This document shows positions 11,556-23,078 of a DNA stretch of 64,000 nucleotides, piece after piece. The notes beneath the pieces were generated by a model that searched no databases, was not told the origin of the DNA, and was given only the letters and a program-made list of their open reading frames with translations. The DNA is from an uncultured bacterium (GTDB lineage Bacteria; Babelota; Babeliae; Babelales; Vermiphilaceae), in assembly GCA_963701085.1 (NCBI GenBank), contig OY969561.1, positions 864,001 through 928,000 on the forward strand, in the 5' to 3' direction. The position numbers and the translations under genes were made by a program. Every line of letters begins with the position of its first letter. Within the stretch, counting starts at the first letter, position 1.

Positions 11556-14366
11556 ATGAATAAAAAAATAACTATTTCACTGATCGCAATTTTATTATCT
11601 TTGCATCTTAACAGTGCCGTACTAATACGCGGCGATAAAGATGCCCCAGAAGGACAAACATTCTCATTCAATGTAAACAAAAATATCTTCAGCTCTTCAG
11701 GCAACTTCTACGAAGGCTCAAATCAAATACTCACCGATGAGAATGCACAACCATTTGCCCTATCTCGCCTACTTCGCGGAGCTATCGGATTTATGCCTAT
11801 AACTCCTGCAACAGTAACCTTAAACGGGCAAGCAGATATAGCAAACCCTCTTCTTGGACAACAAATTATTGCACTCGGCATGCTGGAAACAGAAGATGGT
11901 TTTACCATGCGCGATATGCCCATTGTTGTTGGTGCACAGAGGCCAGCTACCGTGTATCTTTTTGAAAACATTTCACAATCCTTTCCAACTACGGTAGTAA
12001 TGGCTGCTTCACAAGATGTGCATGATGCAAATGGCGCTGTTTCACCGGGCATTGTTGATCTTACAACAAATATCACCAGTCACGTATTTGCCGCAGCCAA
12101 ACCCAATGGTGGAGAATTTGGGGATCTTAACAGCAGCATTGCAATGCTCATACGAGGCATAGTGGAAAACCCAATTGATAAATCAAAAAACCAAATTTTT
12201 AGTGAAATTCAAGCTCTACGCCTTGATCCAACATCACCAGCACTTTTTATTAATAACAATCTTGCACGCATTATACAAAATCAGGTTGCTATGCATTGGG
12301 ACCCTTTCTTAGAACGTCTCTATATTGGTTTGTCAGTTGTGGCCAACAGCGGCGCCACTGATGGTGCACGCTCTATTGCAGTTGTTAAATTTATAGAAAA
12401 TGGCGCAATCACTCTCGAAACCATTGCACCTGATACCGCGTTTACTCCAGGAAATATCGAAAGTATTATTGGTGTTATTGGTGCCAACCAACAACTCTCT
12501 GTTAACGCACTTTCCACCATGTACACGAGCACCGCACTCAACTATCTCATTATTGTTGGTGGAAATGGTAACCTTGCAGCTCACAACAATTCTGTATTCG
12601 CACTACCACTCGTCAATAGCGGTGATGCACTTGGAATGATTGCACAAAAAAATGCACAGCCGGTTAACGTTTTTAAAGATGCAAATGTTCCCCGCTTAAT
12701 TGCACGCACTATCAGTGAACCTGCAACAACCCCTGCTGACATGACACAAGCAACGGACATCGCTGCACAAGTTGGCGGTGGGCCGTTAACCGCAGGACCT
12801 ATTGTAAATATTATTGTACGCGATGATACGGTATTCGCTTTTGTTGGTACAGAAACTCCTGGTGTGTATTCTTCCCAAGCAATTTTCAATGCTGCCGGCA
12901 AAATAACCTCCTGGACCAATTGGCAACGGGCAGCAGGAACAACAGAACAAATTTTTGGTGCTGCGCTCAACGCATTTGATGGTAATTTTATTTTAGCTTC
13001 AGGAACGGATGCAGATTCTGTTAACACCATACAACGAACATTATGGTCTGATGGTTCACCAGAAAGCTTGCAACCTCTCACCGCCATTTTAGACGCAACA
13101 TTTGCACAAAATAACGGTGGCATTCAAGGATTAGAAACATTCTTACCAAACACGCCCGGACTACACAACATTGCGCTCCTCATTGCAGGAGGAATCGGTA
13201 ACATTGTATTGGCACAAACAGGACTGCTCAATAATAACGGCATTATTATCCCAACAGCCGGAGCTGATTTTAACAACATGATAGAATTTGATAATGGTGC
13301 TATCACGAGCGATGTTACTGCAAAAACTGTCATCATTTCTGGTGGCGCACTGGATAATGTTGGCCCAATCACTGCGATTGAAATTGCACGCAACGCAACT
13401 AACGGTTGGCTTTTTGTTGGTGGATCAAATGGACTTGCAATTCTTGCGCAACCAGATGGCACAGGCTGGGATACCACAACACAACTTGGTGATAATTTAA
13501 CGGGATTACAAAGTGGAATGAATTTCAAAAGTATTGGTAATTATAGTTTTGTAAAAAAACTTATCAGTGATAGTAATTTTTTATACGTCATCAACCATAC
13601 CACTATTGATCGTATTAACCTCACCACATCTGATTTTGGCACTAATACCCTTGATGTGACCACCATTCATTCCCCAATTTCCACACCGTTCCAATTGGGG
13701 TCCCCATTGAAGAGTAATGGAAATGGGGTTCATTTTCTTGACGGCATATTTTCACAAGCATGCGGCATTATCGCAACAACAGATGGATTATTACGCATCG
13801 GTGATGGTAAAGATGTACGCACCGTCATGAATGAAACAGATGCACAATGGACACCGATTGCAATTGGTGAAAATGCAGGCGCTCCAACCGCACTGTATAC
13901 GGTAACAAAAACTAATATCGAGCAGGATATTACAAGAAACAGCGGTGGTCATTTTTATGTGCTTACTGCCGATGTTGGTCTTAATCAATCACGCATTAAC
14001 AGATTTGCGGTACAACCGCTTGGCGCAACTGACACAATGGCTTCTACAACAGTGCAACCGTTTGACGATCTCTTTGTAAAAAATATTCCTTCATTTTTAC
14101 TTTCATTCGGGGAGTTTAGAAGTAATTTTGCAACGGATGGTGCACTTTATTTTGCAACACGCAACCAAAATGTCAGACGTGCACCAATTGCTTTAGTTAC
14201 GCCATCATTCCCCGTGCCACGTGTTGGGATTTCTGGCGTTGGCGATCGCAGCTCATTAGTAAATATAAACTTCCAACAGGGAACAGAGATAAATTATTTT
14301 TCACGCAGCCAAGCCTCAGGAAGCTGGATTGCCGCAGGAAATTTTAATACGCAAGTGCTTGAATAA
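11556..14366 (+). CDS. Large secreted beta-rich hypothetical protein
   Basis: 936 aa, signal peptide, Gly/Thr/Asn-rich; carries an in-frame palindromic insert at ~13672-13728. Confidence 0.7.
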   Translation: MNKKITISLIAILLSLHLNSAVLIRGDKDAPEGQTFSFNVNKNIFSSSGNFYEGSNQILTDENAQPFALSRLLRGAIGFMPITPATVTLNGQADIANPLLGQQIIALGMLETEDGFTMRDMPIVVGAQRPATVYLFENISQSFPTTVVMAASQDVHDANGAVSPGIVDLTTNITSHVFAAAKPNGGEFGDLNSSIAMLIRGIVENPIDKSKNQIFSEIQALRLDPTSPALFINNNLARIIQNQVAMHWDPFLERLYIGLSVVANSGATDGARSIAVVKFIENGAITLETIAPDTAFTPGNIESIIGVIGANQQLSVNALSTMYTSTALNYLIIVGGNGNLAAHNNSVFALPLVNSGDALGMIAQKNAQPVNVFKDANVPRLIARTISEPATTPADMTQATDIAAQVGGGPLTAGPIVNIIVRDDTVFAFVGTETPGVYSSQAIFNAAGKITSWTNWQRAAGTTEQIFGAALNAFDGNFILASGTDADSVNTIQRTLWSDGSPESLQPLTAILDATFAQNNGGIQGLETFLPNTPGLHNIALLIAGGIGNIVLAQTGLLNNNGIIIPTAGADFNNMIEFDNGAITSDVTAKTVIISGGALDNVGPITAIEIARNATNGWLFVGGSNGLAILAQPDGTGWDTTTQLGDNLTGLQSGMNFKSIGNYSFVKKLISDSNFLYVINHTTIDRINLTTSDFGTNTLDVTTIHSPISTPFQLGSPLKSNGNGVHFLDGIFSQACGIIATTDGLLRIGDGKDVRTVMNETDAQWTPIAIGENAGAPTALYTVTKTNIEQDITRNSGGHFYVLTADVGLNQSRINRFAVQPLGATDTMASTTVQPFDDLFVKNIPSFLLSFGEFRSNFATDGALYFATRNQNVRRAPIALVTPSFPVPRVGISGVGDRSSLVNINFQQGTEINYFSRSQASGSWIAAGNFNTQVLE

Positions 14367-14426
14367 ATATGATTAAACTTATTTATAACATAAATCACTA
14401 TAGTTACCCGCTTGAAGTATTCTCTT

Positions 14427-14504
14427 CCGCGCTCGTCCTGAACTTGTTGAAGGATATCCTCGAGCGCTCGAAGAAATCCTTCAACAAGTTCAGGACGAGC
14501 GCGG
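14427..14504. repeat. Near-perfect ~78-bp palindromic element (simple form)
   Basis: ccgcgctcgtcctgaacttgttgaaggatatcctcgagcgctcgaagaaatccttcaacaagttcaggacgagcgcgg; near-identical copies at ~24415-24489 and ~45780-45854. Confidence 0.9.
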
Positions 14505-14568
14505 GAGACTATACAGACAAACCAAATTTGATGATTGTTGCTATAAAAACTAAACGTAGGATGCTGCA

Positions 14569-15828
14569 ATGACGTGCAGAAAAAAAGTAATACTCTCAAT
14601 CTTTATATCACTCGCTCTCACGAGCAACGCCGTTCGGGCAATGAACATTGTTAATACATTGTGGCCGTATGATACTCTCATTCGTCCAACATTTAATAAT
14701 CAACGCGCGTGGCAATTAGCATTCTACACTGAAGGTGGATACCATAATGCCAGAGGATTTGATGATGAAGGTGATAATGTTAATCCACTACAAATTTGGA
14801 ACAGACAACAAAATGCACTTGCAATGTTAGAAGGGTTCCCTGAAGAGAGTCCCATTTCCCAATTGCGCGCAGAACTACTGGATTGTGATGATGGTATTCG
14901 CGGAAGATTTAATGTCTGTGGTGATGTGCAGATGAATTTTAACAGCTCATTTGCTGCTCGCTTCTTTTTTGCCAATGATTGGTCGGTAGGGTTATATCTC
15001 CCTGTTTATCAAATGAAACTGAAAGATGTTCATTTTCAGGATCTTACACCCAACGTTGATAATCTCGATAAACTTGTCCACCGTTTACTCACTGATAACT
15101 TAGCAGAAAATGTACAACAACTTGGCTGTCTTGATATTGGCCCCTGGAAACGGGATGGCGTTGGTGATCTTCTTTTGCTTGTTGACTGGTTTCGCGATTT
15201 TTATCAAAACAAACCATTTCTGAAATGTGTACGCACAAACTGGCGTGTTGGTTTAGGGTTCCCTACCGGATTACATGAAAATCCAAATCTTATTTTCGCT
15301 GTTCCATTTGGCTACGACGGTGCATTCTTCATGCCATTTGGCCTTGGCATTGATCTTACCCTGGGCACAAATTTTAAATGCGGCATTGATGTGCAATTAA
15401 CCCAAATTTTTGGCCATACACGATCACGCCGAATTAAAACAGACCTACAGCAAACAGAATTGCTGTTGCTGCAAAAAGCTACAACATTCGAAGACTATGG
15501 GCTGGTACAACGCTTTAATCTCTATGCTGAACTGTATAATTTCTTTAAGGGGTTATCATTTGTTGCTGGTTACCAATTCCTCAAACAAGGTGAAGGAGAA
15601 ATTTCATTAAAAACACAAGAATTCTCAAGCAACATTGCTAACACATCTCCACGCCTTGAACCTTTCACCATGCATCATGCGATTACCAAGTTCACCTATG
15701 ATTTTGGTGTTCACAATCCTGCCGGCCGCACGCGCCCTGAATTGAGTGTATACGCACGCTTACCATTTAACGGCAGAAATGTTGCACTTGTTCCTATGAT
15801 CGGCTTTGTCGCTTCTATTGATTTCTAA
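14569..15828 (+). CDS. Putative outer-membrane beta-barrel protein
   Basis: Signal peptide, aromatic/alternating strands, G.GD motif, C-terminal GFVASIDF ending in Phe. Confidence 0.55.
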   Translation: MTCRKKVILSIFISLALTSNAVRAMNIVNTLWPYDTLIRPTFNNQRAWQLAFYTEGGYHNARGFDDEGDNVNPLQIWNRQQNALAMLEGFPEESPISQLRAELLDCDDGIRGRFNVCGDVQMNFNSSFAARFFFANDWSVGLYLPVYQMKLKDVHFQDLTPNVDNLDKLVHRLLTDNLAENVQQLGCLDIGPWKRDGVGDLLLLVDWFRDFYQNKPFLKCVRTNWRVGLGFPTGLHENPNLIFAVPFGYDGAFFMPFGLGIDLTLGTNFKCGIDVQLTQIFGHTRSRRIKTDLQQTELLLLQKATTFEDYGLVQRFNLYAELYNFFKGLSFVAGYQFLKQGEGEISLKTQEFSSNIANTSPRLEPFTMHHAITKFTYDFGVHNPAGRTRPELSVYARLPFNGRNVALVPMIGFVASIDF

Positions 15829-15833
15829 AACAC

Positions 15834-15874
15834 AAAAAAAGGGGCCTTGGAATTTTTACACTCCAAGGCCCCTC
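15834..15874. terminator. Bidirectional intrinsic terminator
   Basis: A-run + ggggccttgga...tccaaggcccc hairpin between convergent genes. Confidence 0.7.
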
Positions 15875-15900
15875 ATAATTAAAAATCAATTTTTTACAAA

Positions 15901-16326
15901 CTACTTATTGTCACGAGCTATTGTTAGTTCTTTCCTAAGATCCATCACTGACATATCACCTTTTCCTGCGTGCTCAGCCCTAGAAAGAACAAAATCAGAT
16001 GCCATAACAAACATTACTGTATCCCTGCAATCATTACATTGGTGATGTTTGTTGTATTTCTTAACTGCATATTCGAGCTGTAATCCCACAATATGATTAA
16101 ATTCTGAAACTGAAAGATCACGACTATTATCTCGCAAATCATTCATTCTCAATTCATGATTACCATCAGCGTTATCGCAATTGGTTATAACATCATAAAG
16201 GCTCTTTTCCGCTTTATGCATAGCGTCCACATCTTTTTGTATGAGCTGTTGAAAATTTATGGTTATTGCATTAACCGAAATAACCATTGTCGCCATCAAT
16301 AAAAATAACATTTTTGTATTTTTCAT
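15901..16326 (-). CDS. Hypothetical secreted protein
   Basis: 141 aa, signal peptide ending VNA, RBS gagggag. Confidence 0.65.
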   Translation of the reverse strand: MKNTKMLFLLMATMVISVNAITINFQQLIQKDVDAMHKAEKSLYDVITNCDNADGNHELRMNDLRDNSRDLSVSEFNHIVGLQLEYAVKKYNKHHQCNDCRDTVMFVMASDFVLSRAEHAGKGDMSVMDLRKELTIARDNK

Positions 16327-16500
16327 AAGAAACTCCCTCTATTGTTAAAAAAACAACTTCTCTGTGTTCTATTATAAGATTATCATATAGAATTAAAACC
16401 GTCAAATGGCCCCATATATCGTACTACTTTTGCTTACCAACCATTGGCACCAAAAAAAAGGGCTTGGAAGCATACATCTTCCAAGCCCTTCTCAATTACA

Positions 16501-16986
16501 TTATTTTACTTTTTTTATACCTGCTGTATATTGGTTTGGATGCTTTAGCCCGGCTTTTTGTGCAAGATCCATCAAATCACGACTGCTTTTTAGTGCCATT
16601 GTGTTCAAAAAATTAACTTCTTGTTGCTTAAGATACACTGCCAACAATCCACATACAGGATTACCTGATCTGATATAACTTGCTTTTGCTTCTTCTTTTG
16701 CAGTTTTACCACTCCTATTTTCTATCAATGGATTTGGTAACCAGTTTTTATTATTGTGCTTAAACTGTTCCATTTTTTGATTAACCTCAGACCAATCTTC
16801 AAACGTTTTACACTCAATAGCCAGCTTATGCCAAAATGTATTGTTGTATTCATCTTGTTTGTTATGCGCAAATTCCAATCCAAATTTTCTAATATCCACG
16901 ATAACTTCTTTGTTATCCATAGCAACAATCACCGGGCTATACATCATCGCTGCAATCATTAACATTTTTGCATTAATCATCAACAT
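16501..16986 (-). CDS. Hypothetical secreted protein
   Basis: Start reassigned to MLMINAKML (aggag upstream); signal ends IVAM; terminator hairpin at ~16452-16490. Confidence 0.6.
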   Translation of the reverse strand: MLMINAKMLMIAAMMYSPVIVAMDNKEVIVDIRKFGLEFAHNKQDEYNNTFWHKLAIECKTFEDWSEVNQKMEQFKHNNKNWLPNPLIENRSGKTAKEEAKASYIRSGNPVCGLLAVYLKQQEVNFLNTMALKSSRDLMDLAQKAGLKHPNQYTAGIKKVK

Positions 16987-17096
16987 CTCCTGTATATAAA
17001 CTAAAAATTTAAAAATTCTCGACATTTCAAAACACCGTTTATTACACTGCCTATACATGTCATTATAATACTATTTTTTTTAGAAGAGGAATTTCT

Positions 17097-18203
17097 ATGA
17101 ATAAAAGAACTCAGACAAACTATTTTTTAACTGTTTTATGCTTATTAGTACCAGCATATGCGCATGCAAGTAAAGACAACACCGTTATTGCAACCATCAA
17201 TACAGGAGTTAACCCAGCGGGCATTGCAATTACTCGTAATAATCATTACGCATATGTTGCAAACAACAATAATTATGGAGTTAATGATCAAGACTCAGTC
17301 AGTGTACTCAATCTTAAACATAACAATGTTGAGAGTATCATATTCGATTCCAGTTTTAACGAACCATACACCATCACTATTAACCACAAAGGCACAAAAG
17401 CCTATGTTACCAATAGCAACAGCACAACAATCACCATTATCTATCTTGCAACGAACCAAGTTATAGGCGTTATTAATGGCTTTGATGGCCCATCTGGCAT
17501 GGTGATAACTTCGGATGATAATTTTGCATATGTAAACAACTATGGTGGCCCTGAAGGCGTTGGTAGTGGTAATGCACGCACCGTCAGTTTTGTTGATTTG
17601 AATAACAACATCATTATTGGAGCACCAATTACCGTAGGACTTGCTCCTGCTGCATTAGCAATATCACGTGATGGTAAGTTTGTATATACGATCAATTATG
17701 TCGACGGTAATCCAGGCACAGGAACCATAAGTGTTATACGCACCAGTGATAATGTAGTAATTGATACAATAAGCGGCTTTTCTGGGCCATTTGCAATTGC
17801 ACTAACACGTGATAGCAAACATGCGTATGTAACCAATTTTGGCAGCAACAATTTTTCACCAATCGGCACAACAGTAAGCATTGTTAATTTAGAATGCAAT
17901 GAAATAGTTGATACCATTGATCTTGCAATACAACCAGCTGGTCTTGCTATAACACCAAATGGTAAATTTGCATACGTCAGTAATTATAATACGCTCTACC
18001 AAAATGGCGCGCCTAACTTTACTGGTCTAACAGCTGGTCAAGGAACGGTGAATGTTATTGATGTTAAAAAAAGAAAAGTACTCAACAACACAATACCAGT
18101 TGGTGAATCACCTGCAAATATTGCAATATCGCGTGATGGTAAATTTGCATACGTGACTAATTACACTTCAAATACGGTGAATGTTATTAAGCTTGATCAT
18201 TAA
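17097..18203 (+). CDS. YncE/YVTN-repeat beta-propeller protein
   Basis: Repeated P..IAI..DG..AYVTN...TVSVI units; signal peptide; terminator at ~18216-18261. Confidence 0.88.
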   Translation: MNKRTQTNYFLTVLCLLVPAYAHASKDNTVIATINTGVNPAGIAITRNNHYAYVANNNNYGVNDQDSVSVLNLKHNNVESIIFDSSFNEPYTITINHKGTKAYVTNSNSTTITIIYLATNQVIGVINGFDGPSGMVITSDDNFAYVNNYGGPEGVGSGNARTVSFVDLNNNIIIGAPITVGLAPAALAISRDGKFVYTINYVDGNPGTGTISVIRTSDNVVIDTISGFSGPFAIALTRDSKHAYVTNFGSNNFSPIGTTVSIVNLECNEIVDTIDLAIQPAGLAITPNGKFAYVSNYNTLYQNGAPNFTGLTAGQGTVNVIDVKKRKVLNNTIPVGESPANIAISRDGKFAYVTNYTSNTVNVIKLDH

Positions 18204-18795
18204 ATAATTTATAACAAAAAAAAGAACTTGTAGCAGTAAGATGCCGCAAGTTCTTTTTTTTGTTATTTTTGAATTTTTATAAGTTAGTCCAGCCGTCGCC
18301 CCTCTTTCGCCAAGGCTTCAAAGCGCAAAGCAAGACTATGGAGGATTATACTTCAAGTTCCATCGCCTGACGATATTCAATGAGATCAGCCTCAAAATCT
18401 AACGCTAAATTATCATGTTCATGAATTATCTGACCGGCTAATTTTTTTTTGCTTCATACTTTTCCTAAAAAAGTAGTGCGATTTATTGCACCATGTGTTT
18501 GTTGCACGAAATGTATTAAAAGACATTGTGCAACAAAAATGTGAAAAAACCTTTATTTTTCATAAAAAACAATTGTTGCTTTGTATCGTAATCATAATAA
18601 AAAAAGCAAACAATATCAAAAATTGAGTTTAAAAAACTATTTATTCTTTACCATTGGCATAATATATGTTATTGTTTTCTAAATTAGTTACATAACAGAA
18701 ATATTCAGGAGGCGTTCATCATGTTTTAACCACAACATGTTTTTAACCACAACGTTAGTTCTCACAATATTTAATTTTCTTTAATAAAGGTCTTT

Positions 18796-19398
18796 ATGAG
18801 AAAGATTTTAGGTTTATTATTTATTTCATTTTCTATGTTTTCGATGCAATTAGATCTCGTAAGTTCTAAAAGCAAAGTAAATAGATTCCAAGAAAAGTTA
18901 TCTAAACAGATAGATAGCGTAGATAAAGTACACATTAAACCAGCATCGATTGTTGTTCCAAACCGTTTGGGATCGGTCGAACTTTATCATAGTAAAAAAG
19001 GCTTTTATGTTCGCCAGGATGATAAAAAATACGCTATTAAAAAGTATTTTACTGATCCAATGTTACAGAACATAACAAAAACACAACTTAAAGCCTTTCT
19101 AGCAAATGGATATCTTACTATCAATCAAATGGAAGATGGTGAGTATTCACTTAAAGCTAAAGGACGTATGGTTGGTGGAGGAGCAATTGGAGCAGCAATT
19201 GGAGCTTGCGTCGGCAAAGTAGCTGTTTCTTTAGTAGGTCATGGAGCTATTCAGATAATTGCACTATGTACAGGACCAGCTTACATTCCAACGGTTATTG
19301 CTTTAGAAACATTTTTCGGCGTACAAATTGAAGCAGCCACTATGGCAGGAGCTGTTGCAGGAGGTATAGCGCTTGGTGTTGCAACAGGACCTGTATGA
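18796..19398 (+). CDS. Secreted precursor, conserved pro-domain + Gly/Ala-rich hydrophobic tail (array copy 1, intact)
   Basis: Signal peptide, SMQLDLVSSKSKVNRFQEKLSKQI...YSLKAKGRMVGG then GxxxG-rich tail. Confidence 0.75.
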   Translation: MRKILGLLFISFSMFSMQLDLVSSKSKVNRFQEKLSKQIDSVDKVHIKPASIVVPNRLGSVELYHSKKGFYVRQDDKKYAIKKYFTDPMLQNITKTQLKAFLANGYLTINQMEDGEYSLKAKGRMVGGGAIGAAIGACVGKVAVSLVGHGAIQIIALCTGPAYIPTVIALETFFGVQIEAATMAGAVAGGIALGVATGPV

Positions 19399-19526
19399 TC
19401 TATTGGTATGAACAAGTACTTTATGGATTAATAACATTTTTATTGATTCATATATTTAAGTTCTATGTTCTAGGAAATGAAGACATTGGCCTAATTATAA
19501 TTAAGTATTTTAGGAACAAAAAATGA
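19395..19526 (+). CDS. Small membrane peptide (43 aa), putative immunity/accessory
   Basis: ATGA overlap with upstream stop; MIYWYEQVLYGLITFLLIHIFKFYVLGNEDIGLIIIKYFRNKK; below ORF-track cutoff. Confidence 0.55.
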   Translation: MIYWYEQVLYGLITFLLIHIFKFYVLGNEDIGLIIIKYFRNKK

Positions 19527-19666
19527 CTCAAAATGAACATACTTTTGTAGCAGGAATTATTGTTTTCATTTCATATCAAGCAATATTTCATATGGTGTTA
19601 AAACATCATCCTGTTACTAAGAAAAACATGGAAGAATTATTAGAGATTATTAAAGAATATTTTTAA
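19523..19666 (+). CDS. Small membrane peptide (47 aa), putative immunity/accessory
   Basis: ATGA overlap; MTQNEHTFVAGIIVFISYQAIFHMVLKHHPVTKKNMEELLEIIKEYF. Confidence 0.55.
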   Translation: MTQNEHTFVAGIIVFISYQAIFHMVLKHHPVTKKNMEELLEIIKEYF

Positions 19667-19690
19667 AAACAAACTAAGTTAGGAATCTCT

Positions 19691-20525
19691 ATGAGAAAGA
19701 TCTTATACCTATCGTTAATCGTATTTCCCATTTTTTCAATGCAATTGGATCTTGTAAGTTCTAAAAACAAAGTGAATAGATTTCAAGAAAAATTATCTAA
19801 ACAGATAAGCAATACAGATAAGGTACACATTAAACCGGCATCAGTTTTTGCTCCTAATCATTTAGGGATCAGTTGAACTTTATCATGGTAAAAAGGGTTT
19901 TTCTGTTATCCAAGATGACAAAAAACATATCATTAAAAAATACTTTACTGACCCAATGGTACGTGACATTACCAAAAAACAATTGAAATCATTTCTAAAG
20001 GGCGGCTATTTTTCACTTAATCAGATGGATGATGGTGAATTTTCACTCAAAACTAAAGGACGCATAGTCGGTGGTGGTCCTCTTTTTGGCACCGCAGCTT
20101 ATTGGATAACTAAATCACTATGCTATGCAGTAGGATTTGCTGCAATTGGTGGTACCGTTGTTACAACTGGAGGAGCTGCAGTAGGATTAGCTACTTATGC
20201 AACAGCAACTGCCGGTGGTGTAGCACTTACAACCGCTGCAATTACTACAACGTCAGCAGCGGCGATAGGCACCACAACCGGTGTTGTAGTAGGAACAGTT
20301 GCAACGGGAGCATCATTAGCAACGGGAGCTGGTATTGTAGGCGGAGCAATTGGTGTTGCAAGTGCAAGTGGGGTAACTATTGCTGGTGCAACTTTAGGTA
20401 CTGCAGCTGCAACTACTACAGCAGCAGTTGTTACAGGGGCTGGTGGTATTGGAGCAACTATAGCAGGTGTAGAGGCAGTATCATTGGCTGTTGGAACATT
20501 CTTTGGAATGCTACCTACTCCATAA
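19691..20525 (+). pseudogene. Array copy 2, +1 frameshift near 19865
   Basis: ORFs 19691..19876 and 19956..20525 together align to copy 1; ttagggatcagttgaa has one extra G versus ttgggatcggtcgaa. Confidence 0.75.
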
Positions 20526-20534
20526 AGGTAAAAT

Positions 20535-20630
20535 ATGAGCACTGAACAGATCGTATCATGGATATGGTTGATAACATGCTTTGTTATCGGCGCATCTTCT
20601 TGGAAATGGTATTCTCAATCAAAAAAATAA
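20535..20630 (+). CDS. Small membrane peptide (31 aa), putative immunity/accessory
   Basis: aaggt RBS; MSTEQIVSWIWLITCFVIGASSWKWYSQSKK. Confidence 0.5.
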   Translation: MSTEQIVSWIWLITCFVIGASSWKWYSQSKK

Positions 20631-20646
20631 ATTAGTTAGAATTTCT

Positions 20647-21355
20647 ATGAAAAAGGTTTTATACCTATCGTTAATCGTATTTCCCATTTTTTCAATGCAA
20701 TTGGATCTCGTAAGCTCTAAAAGCAAAGTAAATAGATTCCAAGAAAAGTTGTCTAAACAGATAAGTAATATAGATAAAGTGCACATAAAACCGGCATCAG
20801 TTTTTGTTCCTAATCGATTGGGATCATTAGATCTCTATCATAGCAAAAAAGGTTTCTATGTTCGTCAGAATGACAAGAAACAAACTATTAAGAAGCATTT
20901 CACTGATCCAATTCTTCTGATATCACAAAACCTCAATTGAAAGCCTTTCTAGCGAATGGATATCTTACTATCAATCAAATGGAAGATGGTGAATATTCAC
21001 TTAAAGCTAAAGGACGCATGGTTGGTGGTGGGCCTATCTTAGGTACAATTGCTTACTGGGTAACTAAATCGATATGTTACGGAACAGCAGTTGGGGCTAT
21101 AGGAGCTACTGTTATTGGAACTGGAGGAGCTATTGGGGGAGCTGTTGGAGGAGGAGCGTTTCTTGCCGGAACTGCAGTTACTGGAACGGCCGTCGCTACT
21201 ACTGCAACTACTGCCATAGCTACCACAGCCGGAATTGTTACCGGAATGTCGCAACTTGACCTTCAAACAACAGGAGCAGGGCTTGAAGGAGCAACAATTA
21301 CTGGTGCAGGTTTGGCCGGAACAGCAGCAACGACTACTGCTGCTGTTGTCACTAT
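20647..21355 (+). pseudogene. Array copy 3, -1 frameshift near 20917 and 3' truncation
   Basis: MKKVLYLSLIVFPIFSMQLDLVSS start; gatccaattcttctgatatcaca lacks one base versus copy 1; Gly/Ala tail ends abruptly at ...AAVVT. Confidence 0.7.
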
Positions 21356-21562
21356 AATGATTTCTCTTATAAGGGGCCCCCGAACTGGAGCCACAGCGAA
21401 GTCTGGGGTAAAGTCCGTCTACGCCTTCGATCCGTTTTCGCCTACGGCTTCTTCGGACTCACGCTACTTCGGACAGTCTTCGCTTTCTGCTATCAAACTT
21501 TTTATATTGGCAACAATTATCTTATTGCGGCGCAGCCAGACGAAGCTCGTTAGAGCGAAGAC

Positions 21563-21932
21563 TGGTGGAGGCGATGGGAATCGAACCCATGTCCGCAGAG
21601 CAAGTAACTCCAAGCACTACATGCTTATTCTTTGATTATACTCATACAACACCTCAAAGACACAGCATTGTTGTATAAGACAGCTTGTGATACGTACGCA
21701 AGCTACTAAACAGTTCAATCTCGCTCGGAAGTTCTATCTCTTTATTATACGAATTGGTTCAACTGATAGACACGTCAACCCAATAAGCCAGTTACTTACG
21801 GCTAAGCAAAAGCTGGAGCGAAACTAATAGTTTCTGTCATTTATTGTTTTGATTAATTGTTTTACGAGCACTTAATCAACGCTCGGCATGCTCTCAAAGC
21901 GACCAACAACACGTCGAAGCCAGTACGCCCCC
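21563..21932 (-). ncRNA. ssrA: tmRNA
   Basis: 5' GGGGGCGTACTGGCTTCGAC, 3' GGACATGGGTTCGATTCCCATCGCCTCCACCA, 370 nt, internal frame ending FAPAFA-stop, near smpB. Confidence 0.93.
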
Positions 21933-22000
21933 AAATTTTTCAAAGAATATATGTATTATTCAAATAGTAACAGGCAGCATAAGAATAGTCAACAACACAC

Positions 22001-22180
22001 TTATCTGCTTTCTTTCATCGCCCGGCTTGTTTCCCGCTTAATATCCCAGTCTTTGCTCTCACCGCTCATCCTGCGTGCCCGAAGAAGCCTTGGCGAAGTC
22101 GGGAGCTTGTCGAAAGACGTCTGGCTGCGCCGCATTGAGAGGAAGCTCTTTTTCTTACTCAGTGCCTTTTTTTTTGTTAT
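22001..22180 (-). repeat. Displaced, partly degenerate second copy of the smpB 3' end with a palindromic element inside
   Basis: 22001-22045 encodes DIKRETSRAMKESR-stop, identical to the SmpB C-terminus but with different codons. Confidence 0.8.
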
Positions 22181-22309
22181 TATTCTTTAACACAAGATGA
22201 TAAATTATTTCTTATTTTAATATATGCAAAAAATGTACAAGAAAATTTAACAATGCAAGAAAAAAAAGAACTTAAAGAATTAGTCAATATAATAAAAGGC
22301 AAAACATAA
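22178..22309 (+). pseudogene. C-terminal remnant of RelE/HigB-2-like toxin
   Basis: YYSLTQDDKLFLILIYAKNVQENLTMQEKKELKELVNIIKGKT-stop, TAATG-coupled to the HTH antitoxin; no N-terminal half. Confidence 0.7.
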
Positions 22310-22620
22310 TGGGTAATAAATTTTTCAAAGATTTAAAAAAAGGACTTGAGGAAGTAATTGCTTATCAAAAAGGCAAACTTGATCTTCGATCAGAAGAAAT
22401 CGAAATACCTGAACCGCCAGCTCAATATAAAGCTAAACAAATCAAAAAAATACGAAAACAACATCATTACTCTCAAAGCATATTTGCAAAAGTACTCAAT
22501 GTTAGTATTAGAACTGTACAATCATGGGAGTCAGGAAAACGTATACCAAGTCATGCTGCCTTACGTCTTCTTGAAATAGTTGATAAAGGAATATATTGTC
22601 CCGAAATTTATAAAAAATAA
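22309..22620 (+). CDS. HigA-like XRE-family HTH antitoxin
   Basis: F.DLKKGLEE N-terminus; IKKIR...SQSIFAKVLNVSIRTVQSWESGKRIP HTH. Confidence 0.85.
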   Translation: MGNKFFKDLKKGLEEVIAYQKGKLDLRSEEIEIPEPPAQYKAKQIKKIRKQHHYSQSIFAKVLNVSIRTVQSWESGKRIPSHAALRLLEIVDKGIYCPEIYKK

Positions 22621-22625
22621 TATCT

Positions 22626-23078
22626 TTAGCGGCTTTCCTTCATCGCCCGAGAAGTTTCCCGCTTAATATCCCGCTCCTTGAGCTCTTTTTTCCTATCCGG
22701 TGCCTTTTTATGTTTTGCAACACCAAGCTCAACTTTCATCTTACTTTTGTCATTAAGATAAATACGCAACGGAATCACCGTGATGCCCTTTTGGGCAATT
22801 TCACCAAGCAACTTTAAAATTTGACGTTTATGGAGCAGCAGAACGCGTGTACGCGATGCCATTTCTTCACTTTTTTGATACGCCTTGTCATACGGCGCAA
22901 TGCGACAGTTAACCAATGTTAATTCACCATTACGGATTGCAGCAAAAGAGCCTACCAATGAGACTTGCCCTGCTCGCAATGATTTAACCTCATCACCAGT
23001 GAGCACAATACCTGCTTCAATTTTTTCTAAAATATCGTAATCGTGATATGCTTTTTTATTCTGAGTTATTATTTTCAT
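22626..23078 (-). CDS. smpB: SsrA-binding protein
   Basis: NKKAYHDY, EAGIVLTGDEVKSLR, R.LLLHKRQI. Confidence 0.95.
   Translation of the reverse strand: MKIITQNKKAYHDYDILEKIEAGIVLTGDEVKSLRAGQVSLVGSFAAIRNGELTLVNCRIAPYDKAYQKSEEMASRTRVLLLHKRQILKLLGEIAQKGITVIPLRIYLNDKSKMKVELGVAKHKKAPDRKKELKERDIKRETSRAMKESR

Follow-up and report, generated by a model that had tools for sequence, protein, structure and literature searches.

The genes described here lie in a stretch of 64,000 nucleotides (contig OY969561.1 of assembly GCA_963701085.1, positions 864,001 to 928,000; hereafter the window) from the genome of an uncultured bacterium of the Vermiphilaceae, phylum Babelota, probably a parasite of protists. 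The genome is a single contig of 1,198,634 bp with a marker completeness of 92.6%, and the window has a G+C content of ~38%. At 18796-21352, on the + strand, it carries an array of three head-to-tail copies of one gene type whose products are exported proteins with glycine-rich hydrophobic tails. A preliminary description, made from the DNA sequence without database searches, had noticed three tandem genes here and proposed that a conserved pro-domain is cut at a double glycine to free variable, membrane-active peptides. The tandem copies are indeed present (77-83% DNA identity ahead of the conserved junction), but only copy 1 is open as assembled. Copy 1 (18796..19398, +) is an intact gene of 200 amino acids (aa) and belongs to class A of the two tail classes defined below. 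It is directly followed by two small open reading frames (ORFs), smORF1 (19395..19526, +; 43 aa) and smORF2 (19523..19666, +; 47 aa). Copy 2 (19691..20525, +) and copy 3 (20647..21352, +) are class B genes, the former in two frames and the latter broken as assembled; a 31-aa ORF between them (20535..20630, +) is unsupported as a gene. A profile search of the whole genome found the family at this locus only, with copy 1 as the best match (E 2.6e-93).

The family members share one layout, consisting of a Sec-type signal, a basic domain of ~80 aa without a recognised fold, a loop with the motif RxxGGG and a Gly-rich hydrophobic tail; the signal and the basic domain ending in RxxGG had been read correctly in the preliminary description as common to the three copies. 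Every copy begins with a basic N terminus followed by a hydrophobic core. In copy 1 the signal covers approximately residues 1-17 (18796..18846, +; the cleavage site is inferred rather than computed), its Kyte-Doolittle hydropathy peaks at 1.82 at residue 13, and a stretch of the signal region, ..S.FSM(Q/E)L.., is conserved in the family alignment. The basic domain proper (hereafter N-domain; residues 44-129, 18925..19182, +) ends in RxxGGG, and the N part of the protein contains 22 Lys and Arg versus 11 Asp and Glu per 129 residues. The junction, R124-x-x-G127-G128-G129, is encoded at 19165..19182 (+), and the tail of copy 1 at 19183..19395 (+). This tail is 71 aa long, that of copy 2 ~148 aa (counted by eye). 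Gly, Ala, Thr, Val and Ile make up 72% of the copy 1 tail, which has five GxxxG motifs; the corresponding values for a metagenome protein, P0033, are 83% and seven. A scan of 18200-22000 for promoters and terminators gave counts no higher than those in shuffled sequence. At one locus of distant relatives (L025, G156:C3), three tandem paralogues have, as judged by eye, a signal that ends in a lipobox-like L-x-A-C and may be lipoproteins.

Database searches showed the genes to belong to a large unannotated protein family. An index of 5.8 billion proteins contained 84 homologues of copy 1, only one of which, an ankyrin fusion, had a Pfam domain; one of the 84 was labelled Candidatus Babeliales, a label that points to the Dependentiae. 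A 40-member profile matched 1262, 935 and 183 representatives of clusters formed at 50% identity, at E thresholds of 1e-3, 1e-10 and 1e-30, respectively. Of the 261 genomes of the phylum, 84 had matches (63 of the 189 high-quality genomes, 52 of 145 genera), often in multiple copies; so far, the family has been detected only in this phylum and among unnamed metagenome proteins. Arrays of several copies, and copies in decay, are found among the relatives as well. Searching genome contigs with a pattern, stretch A8, gave 600 matches, none of which was confirmed. The window's copies matched nothing in Pfam or NCBIfam, and 77 relatives scanned singly against Pfam (47 of class A and 30 of class B) were assigned to no family. 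In a sequence-profile search of the PDB, the best match had E 0.23, with staphylococcal exotoxin-like C-terminal domains at E 1-3, and in the ESM Atlas the whole protein scored at best 0.79 and the tail 0.80, both under the useful level. By sequence, the family is outside every known family tested. The literature that we searched holds no account of the family, or of a glycine zipper tied to Dependentiae or Babeliales; supplementary lists of secreted proteins (PMC6561590, PMC4776705) could name homologues. One metagenome protein of 292 aa (P0082) switches midway through the N-domain: the signal and the first half are present, and ankyrin repeats replace the remainder of the protein.

When 223 family proteins were sorted by their tails, 132 fell into class A and 65 into class B, and 26 were truncated or variant. 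Class A tails are 71-77 aa long (median 71) and end in ..ATGPV, with G198 and P199 present in 47 of 47 sequences and V200 in 46. Class B tails range from 44 to 275 aa (median 155); they start with P-x-x-G-x-x-x-Y-W-x-T-K, end in ..FFGMLPTP and have a low-complexity middle rich in Thr, Ala, Gly and Val. Mean pairwise identity in class A is 25% for the linker after the signal, 46% for the N-domain, 64% for the tail and 73% for the last 25 residues; in class B it is 63% for the N-domain and 58, 38 and 65% for the start, middle and end of the tail. The tails thus do not vary freely, as had been supposed, but form two conserved classes, the class A tail being better conserved than the N-domain ahead of it. 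Conservation over the full length, which the preliminary description had said would speak against its proposal, is what we observe within each class (in class A, a tail of 71-77 aa at 64% identity). Two residues recur in both classes, an early Lys in helix 1 and a Glu near the end; K141 and a Glu are present in 30 of 30 class B sequences. The two classes therefore look like a single type of tail with an expanded middle. Distant subfamilies (L025-L029) have 30-45 additional residues inside the N-domain and keep the junction as ..DGEY.L....RLLGGG, beyond which come other Gly-rich hydrophobic tails and then hydrophilic ends. At least three tail types therefore occur in the family, and the earlier observation that differing Gly-rich hydrophobic tails follow the junction holds across the family as a whole. 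In two proteins (P0003 and P0015) the usual stop is read through, with Trp in place of TGA, adding ~12 residues; this extension resembles the in-frame translation 3' of the copy 1 stop (19396-19430), a segment that also encodes the start of smORF1.

The junction itself is as conserved as the preliminary description held: G127 and G129 are invariant in both classes (47/47 and 30/30), G128 is Gly or Ser in class A, and R124 is found in 43 of the 47 class A sequences and in every one of the 30 class B sequences. From the ATG to GGG, the three copies of the window show pairwise DNA identities of 77.0, 82.6 and 81.3% over 386-387 aligned bases, whereas the 200 alignment columns that follow give 39.6, 46.9 and 61.3%. 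Copies 1 and 3 are 93-97% identical over the 90 nt ahead of the junction, and identity falls to 50% and then 27% just past it. A class A gene and a class-B-like paralogue in another genome (G023) are identical, by eye, from the end of the signal to the junction; over their whole N parts, including differing signals, they are 87.7% identical, and their tails 22.5%. A tree of 153 N-domains (95 of class A, 58 of class B) requires at least 30 changes of class label, compared with 44-51 in the ten listed of 200 shuffles, and the approximately unbiased test on this tree rejected class B as a single clade (log-likelihood difference 511, p 3e-8). These comparisons show the junction to be a module boundary across which N-domains and tails have been re-assorted. 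A conserved N region followed, at a conserved motif, by interchangeable C modules is a feature of polymorphic toxins and is present here. A profile check proposed in the preliminary description asked whether homologues always switch to variable C termini right after GG; there is a sharp switch at this point, but it leads into conserved classes and not into variable ends. Since a conversion tract ends where homology ends, the sharp break in identity is expected and is no proof of a processing site.

To describe the predicted structure, we used AlphaFold2 (AF2). The full-length model of copy 1, based on 47 class A sequences, had a mean predicted local distance difference test (pLDDT) score of 85 and a predicted template modelling (pTM) score of 0.57. 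It contains strands at residues 45-47, 62-66, 69-74 and 77-80, a helix at 95-104, strands at 105-111 and 117-123, and tail helices at 129-157 and 160-196; the RxxGG stretch is a loop (124-128) that links the last strand to the first tail helix. Averaged over blocks of ten residues, pLDDT is 91-98 across residues 131-190, 78 for 121-130 and 76 for 191-200. Both tail helices bear a GxxxGxxxG zipper, G132/G136/G140 in helix 1 (conserved in 47, 47 and 45 of 47 class A sequences) and G190/G194/G198 in helix 2 (47, 39 and 47 of 47), so that this motif, a feature of glycine-zipper proteins when placed on a hydrophobic helix, lies on a helix in both cases in the model. Residues K141, H149, E171 and E179 are conserved in 45-46 of 47 class A sequences. 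The class A tail is predicted to be a 71-aa two-helix hairpin with one zipper per helix and four conserved polar residues.

Modelled alone from 16 sequences, the N-domain gave a pLDDT of 87.1 and a pTM of 0.72, with four strands, two helices and two strands in that order; its last four residues had pLDDT <50. A comparison with the PDB by VIA-align returned nothing at Z >=5. The best matches were the head domains of SAS-6, CCDC61, XRCC4, XLF and PAXX (Z 3.0-4.6), with SAS-6 at 4.6, and the best Foldseek match had E 0.29 and template modelling (TM) scores of at most 0.33. The resemblance to ubiquitin drawn in the preliminary description received no support, as ubiquitin-like chains were absent from the top 50 matches of both VIA-align and Foldseek (N-domain model at pLDDT 87) and the strands and helices of ubiquitin follow a different order. 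A distant beta-grasp relationship is possible, but the model gives no support for it. With the full-length model, both programs matched the hairpin only, and generically: the look-alikes were ATP synthase c subunits, Tim17-type proteins and a subunit of alternative complex III (ACIII), at Z <=6.8. Because RxxGGG forms the loop between a strand and the first tail helix in the models, a hinge there would explain its conservation, and cleavage is not needed to account for it.

Downstream of copy 1, the ATG of smORF1 overlaps the stop codon of copy 1 (ATGA), and smORF2 in turn overlaps the stop of smORF1. The smORF1 product has a W-Y-(E) motif and one hydrophobic helix; that of smORF2 starts with MTQxxH and has one hydrophobic helix and a basic/amphipathic end. 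Both are conserved in relatives, W4 and Y5 of smORF1 and M1 and H6 of smORF2 each being present in 13 of 13 sequences. The pair lies 3' of 12 of 16 class A genes (those of this genome and of L006, L009, L010, L011, L013, L017, L018, L019, L021, L022 and L024) and is absent after those of L008, L012, L015 and L020; L029, from a distant family of the phylum, also has both mini-ORFs. A smORF2 profile gave 53 matches in 42 of the 261 genomes, at least 30 of them directly 3' of a family match when coordinates were compared by eye. At ten strong smORF2 matches away from family matches, no family gene lies within 1.5 kb, and smORF1 stands alongside at eight of the ten. Such stand-alone pairs resemble orphan immunity genes. 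Class A genes are thus shown to lie usually in a cassette with two genes for single-helix mini-proteins. This is consistent with the small membrane-protein genes that the preliminary description placed after copies 1 and 2, except that copy 1 is followed by two and not one, and that the 31-aa ORF after copy 2 has no homologue in the fetched loci or in the rest of the genome.

Copies 2 and 3 are interrupted as assembled. Copy 2 is split into 19691..19876 and 19956..20525 by one extra base at 19864, and copy 3 into 20647..20940 and a second part from 20937 onward by a base missing after 20917; copy 3 lacks further bases after 21246, 21266 and 21267, and its 3' end is gone near 21350. All five indel sites are intact in contigs from four public metagenome runs, several of these contigs having a depth <5. 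Two contigs of run X4 lack the extra base at 19864, one of them being otherwise equal to the window over 87 bases, and one metagenome contig extends beyond 21349 in the tail reading frame. Consistently, P0033 is a 266-aa intact close counterpart of copy 3. ORFs of at least 100 aa span 84.5% of the genome, and the assembly is therefore not riddled with indels. Five indels within 1.7 kb of repeats point either to very recent decay or to a local assembly or polishing error. In public sequencing runs, the largest share of the words of this stretch found in any one run was 0.18, and no RNA run was listed. Just beyond the break in copy 3, 46 bp at 21365-21410 match C1:670586-670631 at 83%, and 21463-21597 is 91% conserved beside the transfer-messenger RNA (tmRNA) gene of G253; the truncation of copy 3 may border a repeat.

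Some 200 bp lie between the array and the tmRNA gene (21563..21932, -; Rfam RF00023, 145.1 bits, E 7e-58), which has its 3' end towards the array and is context outside the system; smpB follows at 22626..23078. ARAGORN called a 670-nt "permuted tmRNA" at 20986-21655 (-), overlapping copy 3, which we regard as an artefact given the Rfam tmRNA at 21563-21932; its tag peptide is read from the strand opposite the Gly/Ala/Thr-rich tail of copy 3. In the genus, 3 of the 11 genomes have family genes next to the 3' end of the tmRNA (this one, G249:C59 at L007, and G253:C1:444770-448527). The tmRNA-smpB interval is a hot spot for insertions in the genus, measuring ~50 bp in G250, 0.7 kb here and 1.5-8.7 kb in five others. 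Here (21932-22626) it contains a copy of the last 14 codons of smpB at 22001-22045 (-) and a helix-turn-helix gene at 22309-22620 (+; Pfam HTH_3, E 5e-9; MqsA-antitoxin-like, E 1e-4, below the cut-off), whose DNA recurs at 72-84% identity elsewhere in the genome and in relatives. It also contains, at ~22052-22117, a GC-rich dispersed repeat of ~55 bp with at least 12 further copies in this genome and many in relatives, which looks like a repetitive extragenic palindromic (REP) element or a miniature inverted-repeat transposable element (MITE). On the other side of the array, between housekeeping genes and copy 1, 11556-18203 holds genes of 936, 419, 140 and 184 aa without a Pfam match and a gene for a seven-bladed, beta-propeller lactonase-like protein (17097..18203, E 1.4e-18); these could be part of one island at the tmRNA.

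We also looked for machinery that might process or export the proteins. No recurring neighbour, protease or exporter was seen in the flanks of 26 relatives, where the scan took in 63 of 86 flank ORFs and omitted the 23 shortest. The C39 peptidase PF03412 had no match in the window, in agreement with the preliminary description, and likewise none in the whole genome, while the control matched in 7 of 14 genomes. OTU proteases (PF02338) gave no match in the genome, in a search whose control matched nowhere. The genome does encode signal peptidase I and two secretin genes. No NHLP or Nif11 leader family of the long-leader RiPP precursors was matched at E <=1 by the copies or the small ORFs in NCBIfam, which should include these models. 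Bacteriocin_IIc (PF10439) gave nothing for the window's copies at E <=1, one match among 47 class A relatives (E 0.26) and none among 30 of class B. The glycine-zipper families PF13488, PF13441 and PF05433 gave no match at E <=1 for the copies and the 77 members; in the ESM Atlas, scores of 0.77-0.79 were obtained to clusters in which 15-31% of the members carry glycine-zipper domains.

Several known systems share parts of this design. Double-glycine leaders are ~15-30 aa long and have no Sec signal. As in class II bacteriocins and microcins, Gly-Gly stands right before a Gly/Ala-rich hydrophobic peptide of ~70 aa and membrane ORFs lie downstream, but the "leader" here is a folded domain of ~110 aa behind a Sec signal, in an N part of 129 aa, and the genome has no C39 exporter. 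Ubiquitin and ubiquitin-like fusion precursors end in RLRGG. Here too, a small domain runs from its last strand into R-x-x-G-G and on into a different polypeptide, but the predicted order of elements is unlike that of ubiquitin and Sec export takes the protein away from the cell's own cytosolic proteases. The c subunit of F-type ATP synthase has, like the class A tail, a two-helix hairpin of ~70 aa with Gly-rich faces and a conserved carboxylate in helix two, but the match is generic (Z ~6, root-mean-square deviation 4.2-4.7 A), there is no sequence relation, and our protein has an extra exported domain and a signal. Pore-forming colicins combine modular receptor, translocation and pore domains with membrane immunity proteins. 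The family resembles them in having a conserved membrane-active type of hydrophobic hairpin module recombined with a more variable, targeting type of module and a membrane-located candidate protector; it differs in having only a hairpin instead of a ten-helix domain, a far smaller size, a Sec signal and no detected homology. Colicins are also discussed in passages of PMC11630599.

The closest parallels are glycine-zipper depolarising toxins. Among these, Caulobacter Cdz is a glycine-zipper bacteriocin (CdzC/D) with a membrane immunity protein, CdzI (PMC5380434), Staphylococcus aureus EsxX is a glycine-zipper depolarising toxin (PMC12744356), and the ionophore toxins of contact-dependent inhibition (CDI) systems have small hydrophobic immunity proteins of 72-100 aa (PMC11630599). 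Shared with such toxins are an N-terminal delivery or entry part followed by a C-terminal hydrophobic zipper part, genes for small hydrophobic partners immediately downstream, partner genes that also occur as orphans, and modular recombination at a conserved junction. Unlike CDI toxins, Cdz and EsxX, which use type I, V or VII systems, the proteins described here have a plain Sec signal. They also have a two-helix hairpin and not a five-helix bundle, tails and partners that are conserved and not hypervariable (64% identity in the class A tail against 46% in the N-domain, with mini-proteins that align across genera), and two single-helix partners of 30-50 aa and not one protein of two or three helices; no sequence similarity was found, and the bacteria concerned are apparently intracellular parasites. 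We rate the system as a glycine-zipper membrane protein with small membrane partners, new in the unmatched fold of its N-domain, its plain Sec export and its cassette of two mini-proteins.

The reading that we favour, tentatively and with real reservations, is that of an uncleaved, Sec-exported membrane-active hairpin protein with two mini-proteins as partners that neutralise or gate it. After Sec export, only the signal would be removed and the protein would stay in one piece, RxxGGG serving as a hinge at the membrane surface and not as a cleavage site. The basic domain would remain at the outer face, for targeting or binding, and the hairpin would insert in a membrane and self-associate via its glycine zippers, by analogy with known glycine-zipper membrane toxins, into a small oligomer that leaks ions or perturbs the membrane. 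The mini-proteins would sit in the producer membrane as cognate partners that neutralise or gate the hairpin; candidate target membranes are those of a host vacuole or organelle, of co-infecting bacteria or of the cell itself. We lean to this reading because of the architecture, the downstream membrane genes, the stand-alone mini-ORF pairs, the accessory distribution and the modular recombination. Several findings weigh against it. The class A tail is the most conserved region of the protein (64% versus 46%) and the mini-proteins are conserved too, while CDI ionophore/immunity pairs are described as highly variable in passages of PMC11630599. The mini-ORFs were counted at 12 of 16 class A loci with profiles built from the same loci. 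Self-protection by the mini-proteins is awkward because 4 of 16 class A loci lack them and three of the genomes concerned (G254, G101 and G017) have no smORF2 match anywhere, and class B genes have no conserved small partner. By default, a Sec-exported hydrophobic hairpin would remain in the inner membrane of its own cell; the genes are linked to no dedicated delivery system, although type V, VI and VII parts were not searched for; and the structural matches of the hairpin are generic, at Z <=6.8. A bolder form of the same idea, which we consider unlikely, makes the protein a Sec-launched, colicin-like modular effector of obligate intracellular parasites of protists, in which a targeting domain specific to the lineage and of new fold would be recombined onto a few conserved glycine-zipper hairpin "warheads" that permeabilise the membranes of a host vacuole or organelle, or of co-infecting bacteria; the two mini-proteins would be an immunity pair persisting as orphans, and the RxxGGG loop may double as a release site.

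The inner-membrane default just mentioned is also what a Sec signal followed by a hairpin would give if the protein belonged to a resident envelope complex, a possible but rather doubtful explanation in which the hairpin anchors the protein in the cell's own inner membrane, the mini-proteins are fellow subunits, the basic domain is periplasmic (for example in wall or outer-membrane binding or ion homeostasis) and nothing is toxic. The fixed tail length of 71-77 aa with its near-invariant C terminus, a tail more conserved than the N-domain, mini-proteins conserved across many genera and look-alikes among small membrane subunits (ATP synthase c and Tim17-type, generic at Z ~6) all fit such a complex. 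It sits less well with the patchy spread (84 of 261 genomes), the tandem arrays with some decayed copies, the absence of conserved neighbours and the occurrence of the parts apart in both directions, smORF2 without a family gene at ten loci and class A genes without mini-ORFs; a strongly basic domain and a K-x-K-G-R flank on the outside would, moreover, run contrary to the positive-inside rule. The faster evolution of the N-domain than of the tail could instead reflect display to a host, as in an Inc-like anchor that leaves through a secretin or in vesicles and places its hairpin, without forming a pore, in a host vacuole or organelle with the basic domain exposed. The genome has secretins, P0082 joins the N half to ankyrin repeats, and passages of PMC6561590 describe relatives as intracellular parasites, many of whose Sec-signal ORFans are thought to act on the host. 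Such an anchor is nevertheless quite unlikely, as there is no evidence of secretion past the periplasm, the mini-proteins would be left without a role and the buried Lys, His and two Glu residues would go unexplained. Cleavage after RxxGG by a double-glycine peptidase or a host deubiquitinase-like protease, freeing a membrane-active peptide as the preliminary description proposed, we regard as improbable. A near-invariant GGG, an Arg kept in 43/47 and 30/30 sequences, a junction in an exposed low-confidence loop, a tail composition like that of Gly-rich class II bacteriocins and microcins and small membrane ORFs downstream are what such a model would predict. Against it stand the lack of a C39 peptidase in the genome, the single Bacteriocin_IIc match (1/47, E 0.26), an N part of 129 aa with its own Sec signal in place of a leader of 15-30 aa, the absence of any matched NCBIfam leader family, of a ubiquitin-like fold and of a protease gene recurring beside the family, and four class A members that lack the Arg. 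Nothing that we found supports cutting at the Gly-Gly junction.

The phylum is known almost only from genomes, and most of its exported proteins have no assigned role, according to passages of PMC6561590. The genes analysed here represent a large family (1262 clusters) built from two cleanly separated modules, with a domain that is modelled with confidence and has no match among solved folds, and their conserved three-gene cassette includes two mini-proteins that gene callers would usually miss. Whichever explanation holds, the idea of a hypervariable, GG-cleaved peptide family is corrected. If the protein were part of a resident complex, the cassette would provide two new bacterial mini-proteins with a defined partner. 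If, as in the uncleaved membrane-active reading that we favour, the hairpin acts on membranes, the family would stand as a simple, Sec-dependent equivalent to those glycine-zipper toxins that are delivered by specialised systems, and would offer a handle on how these parasites act on the membranes of their hosts.

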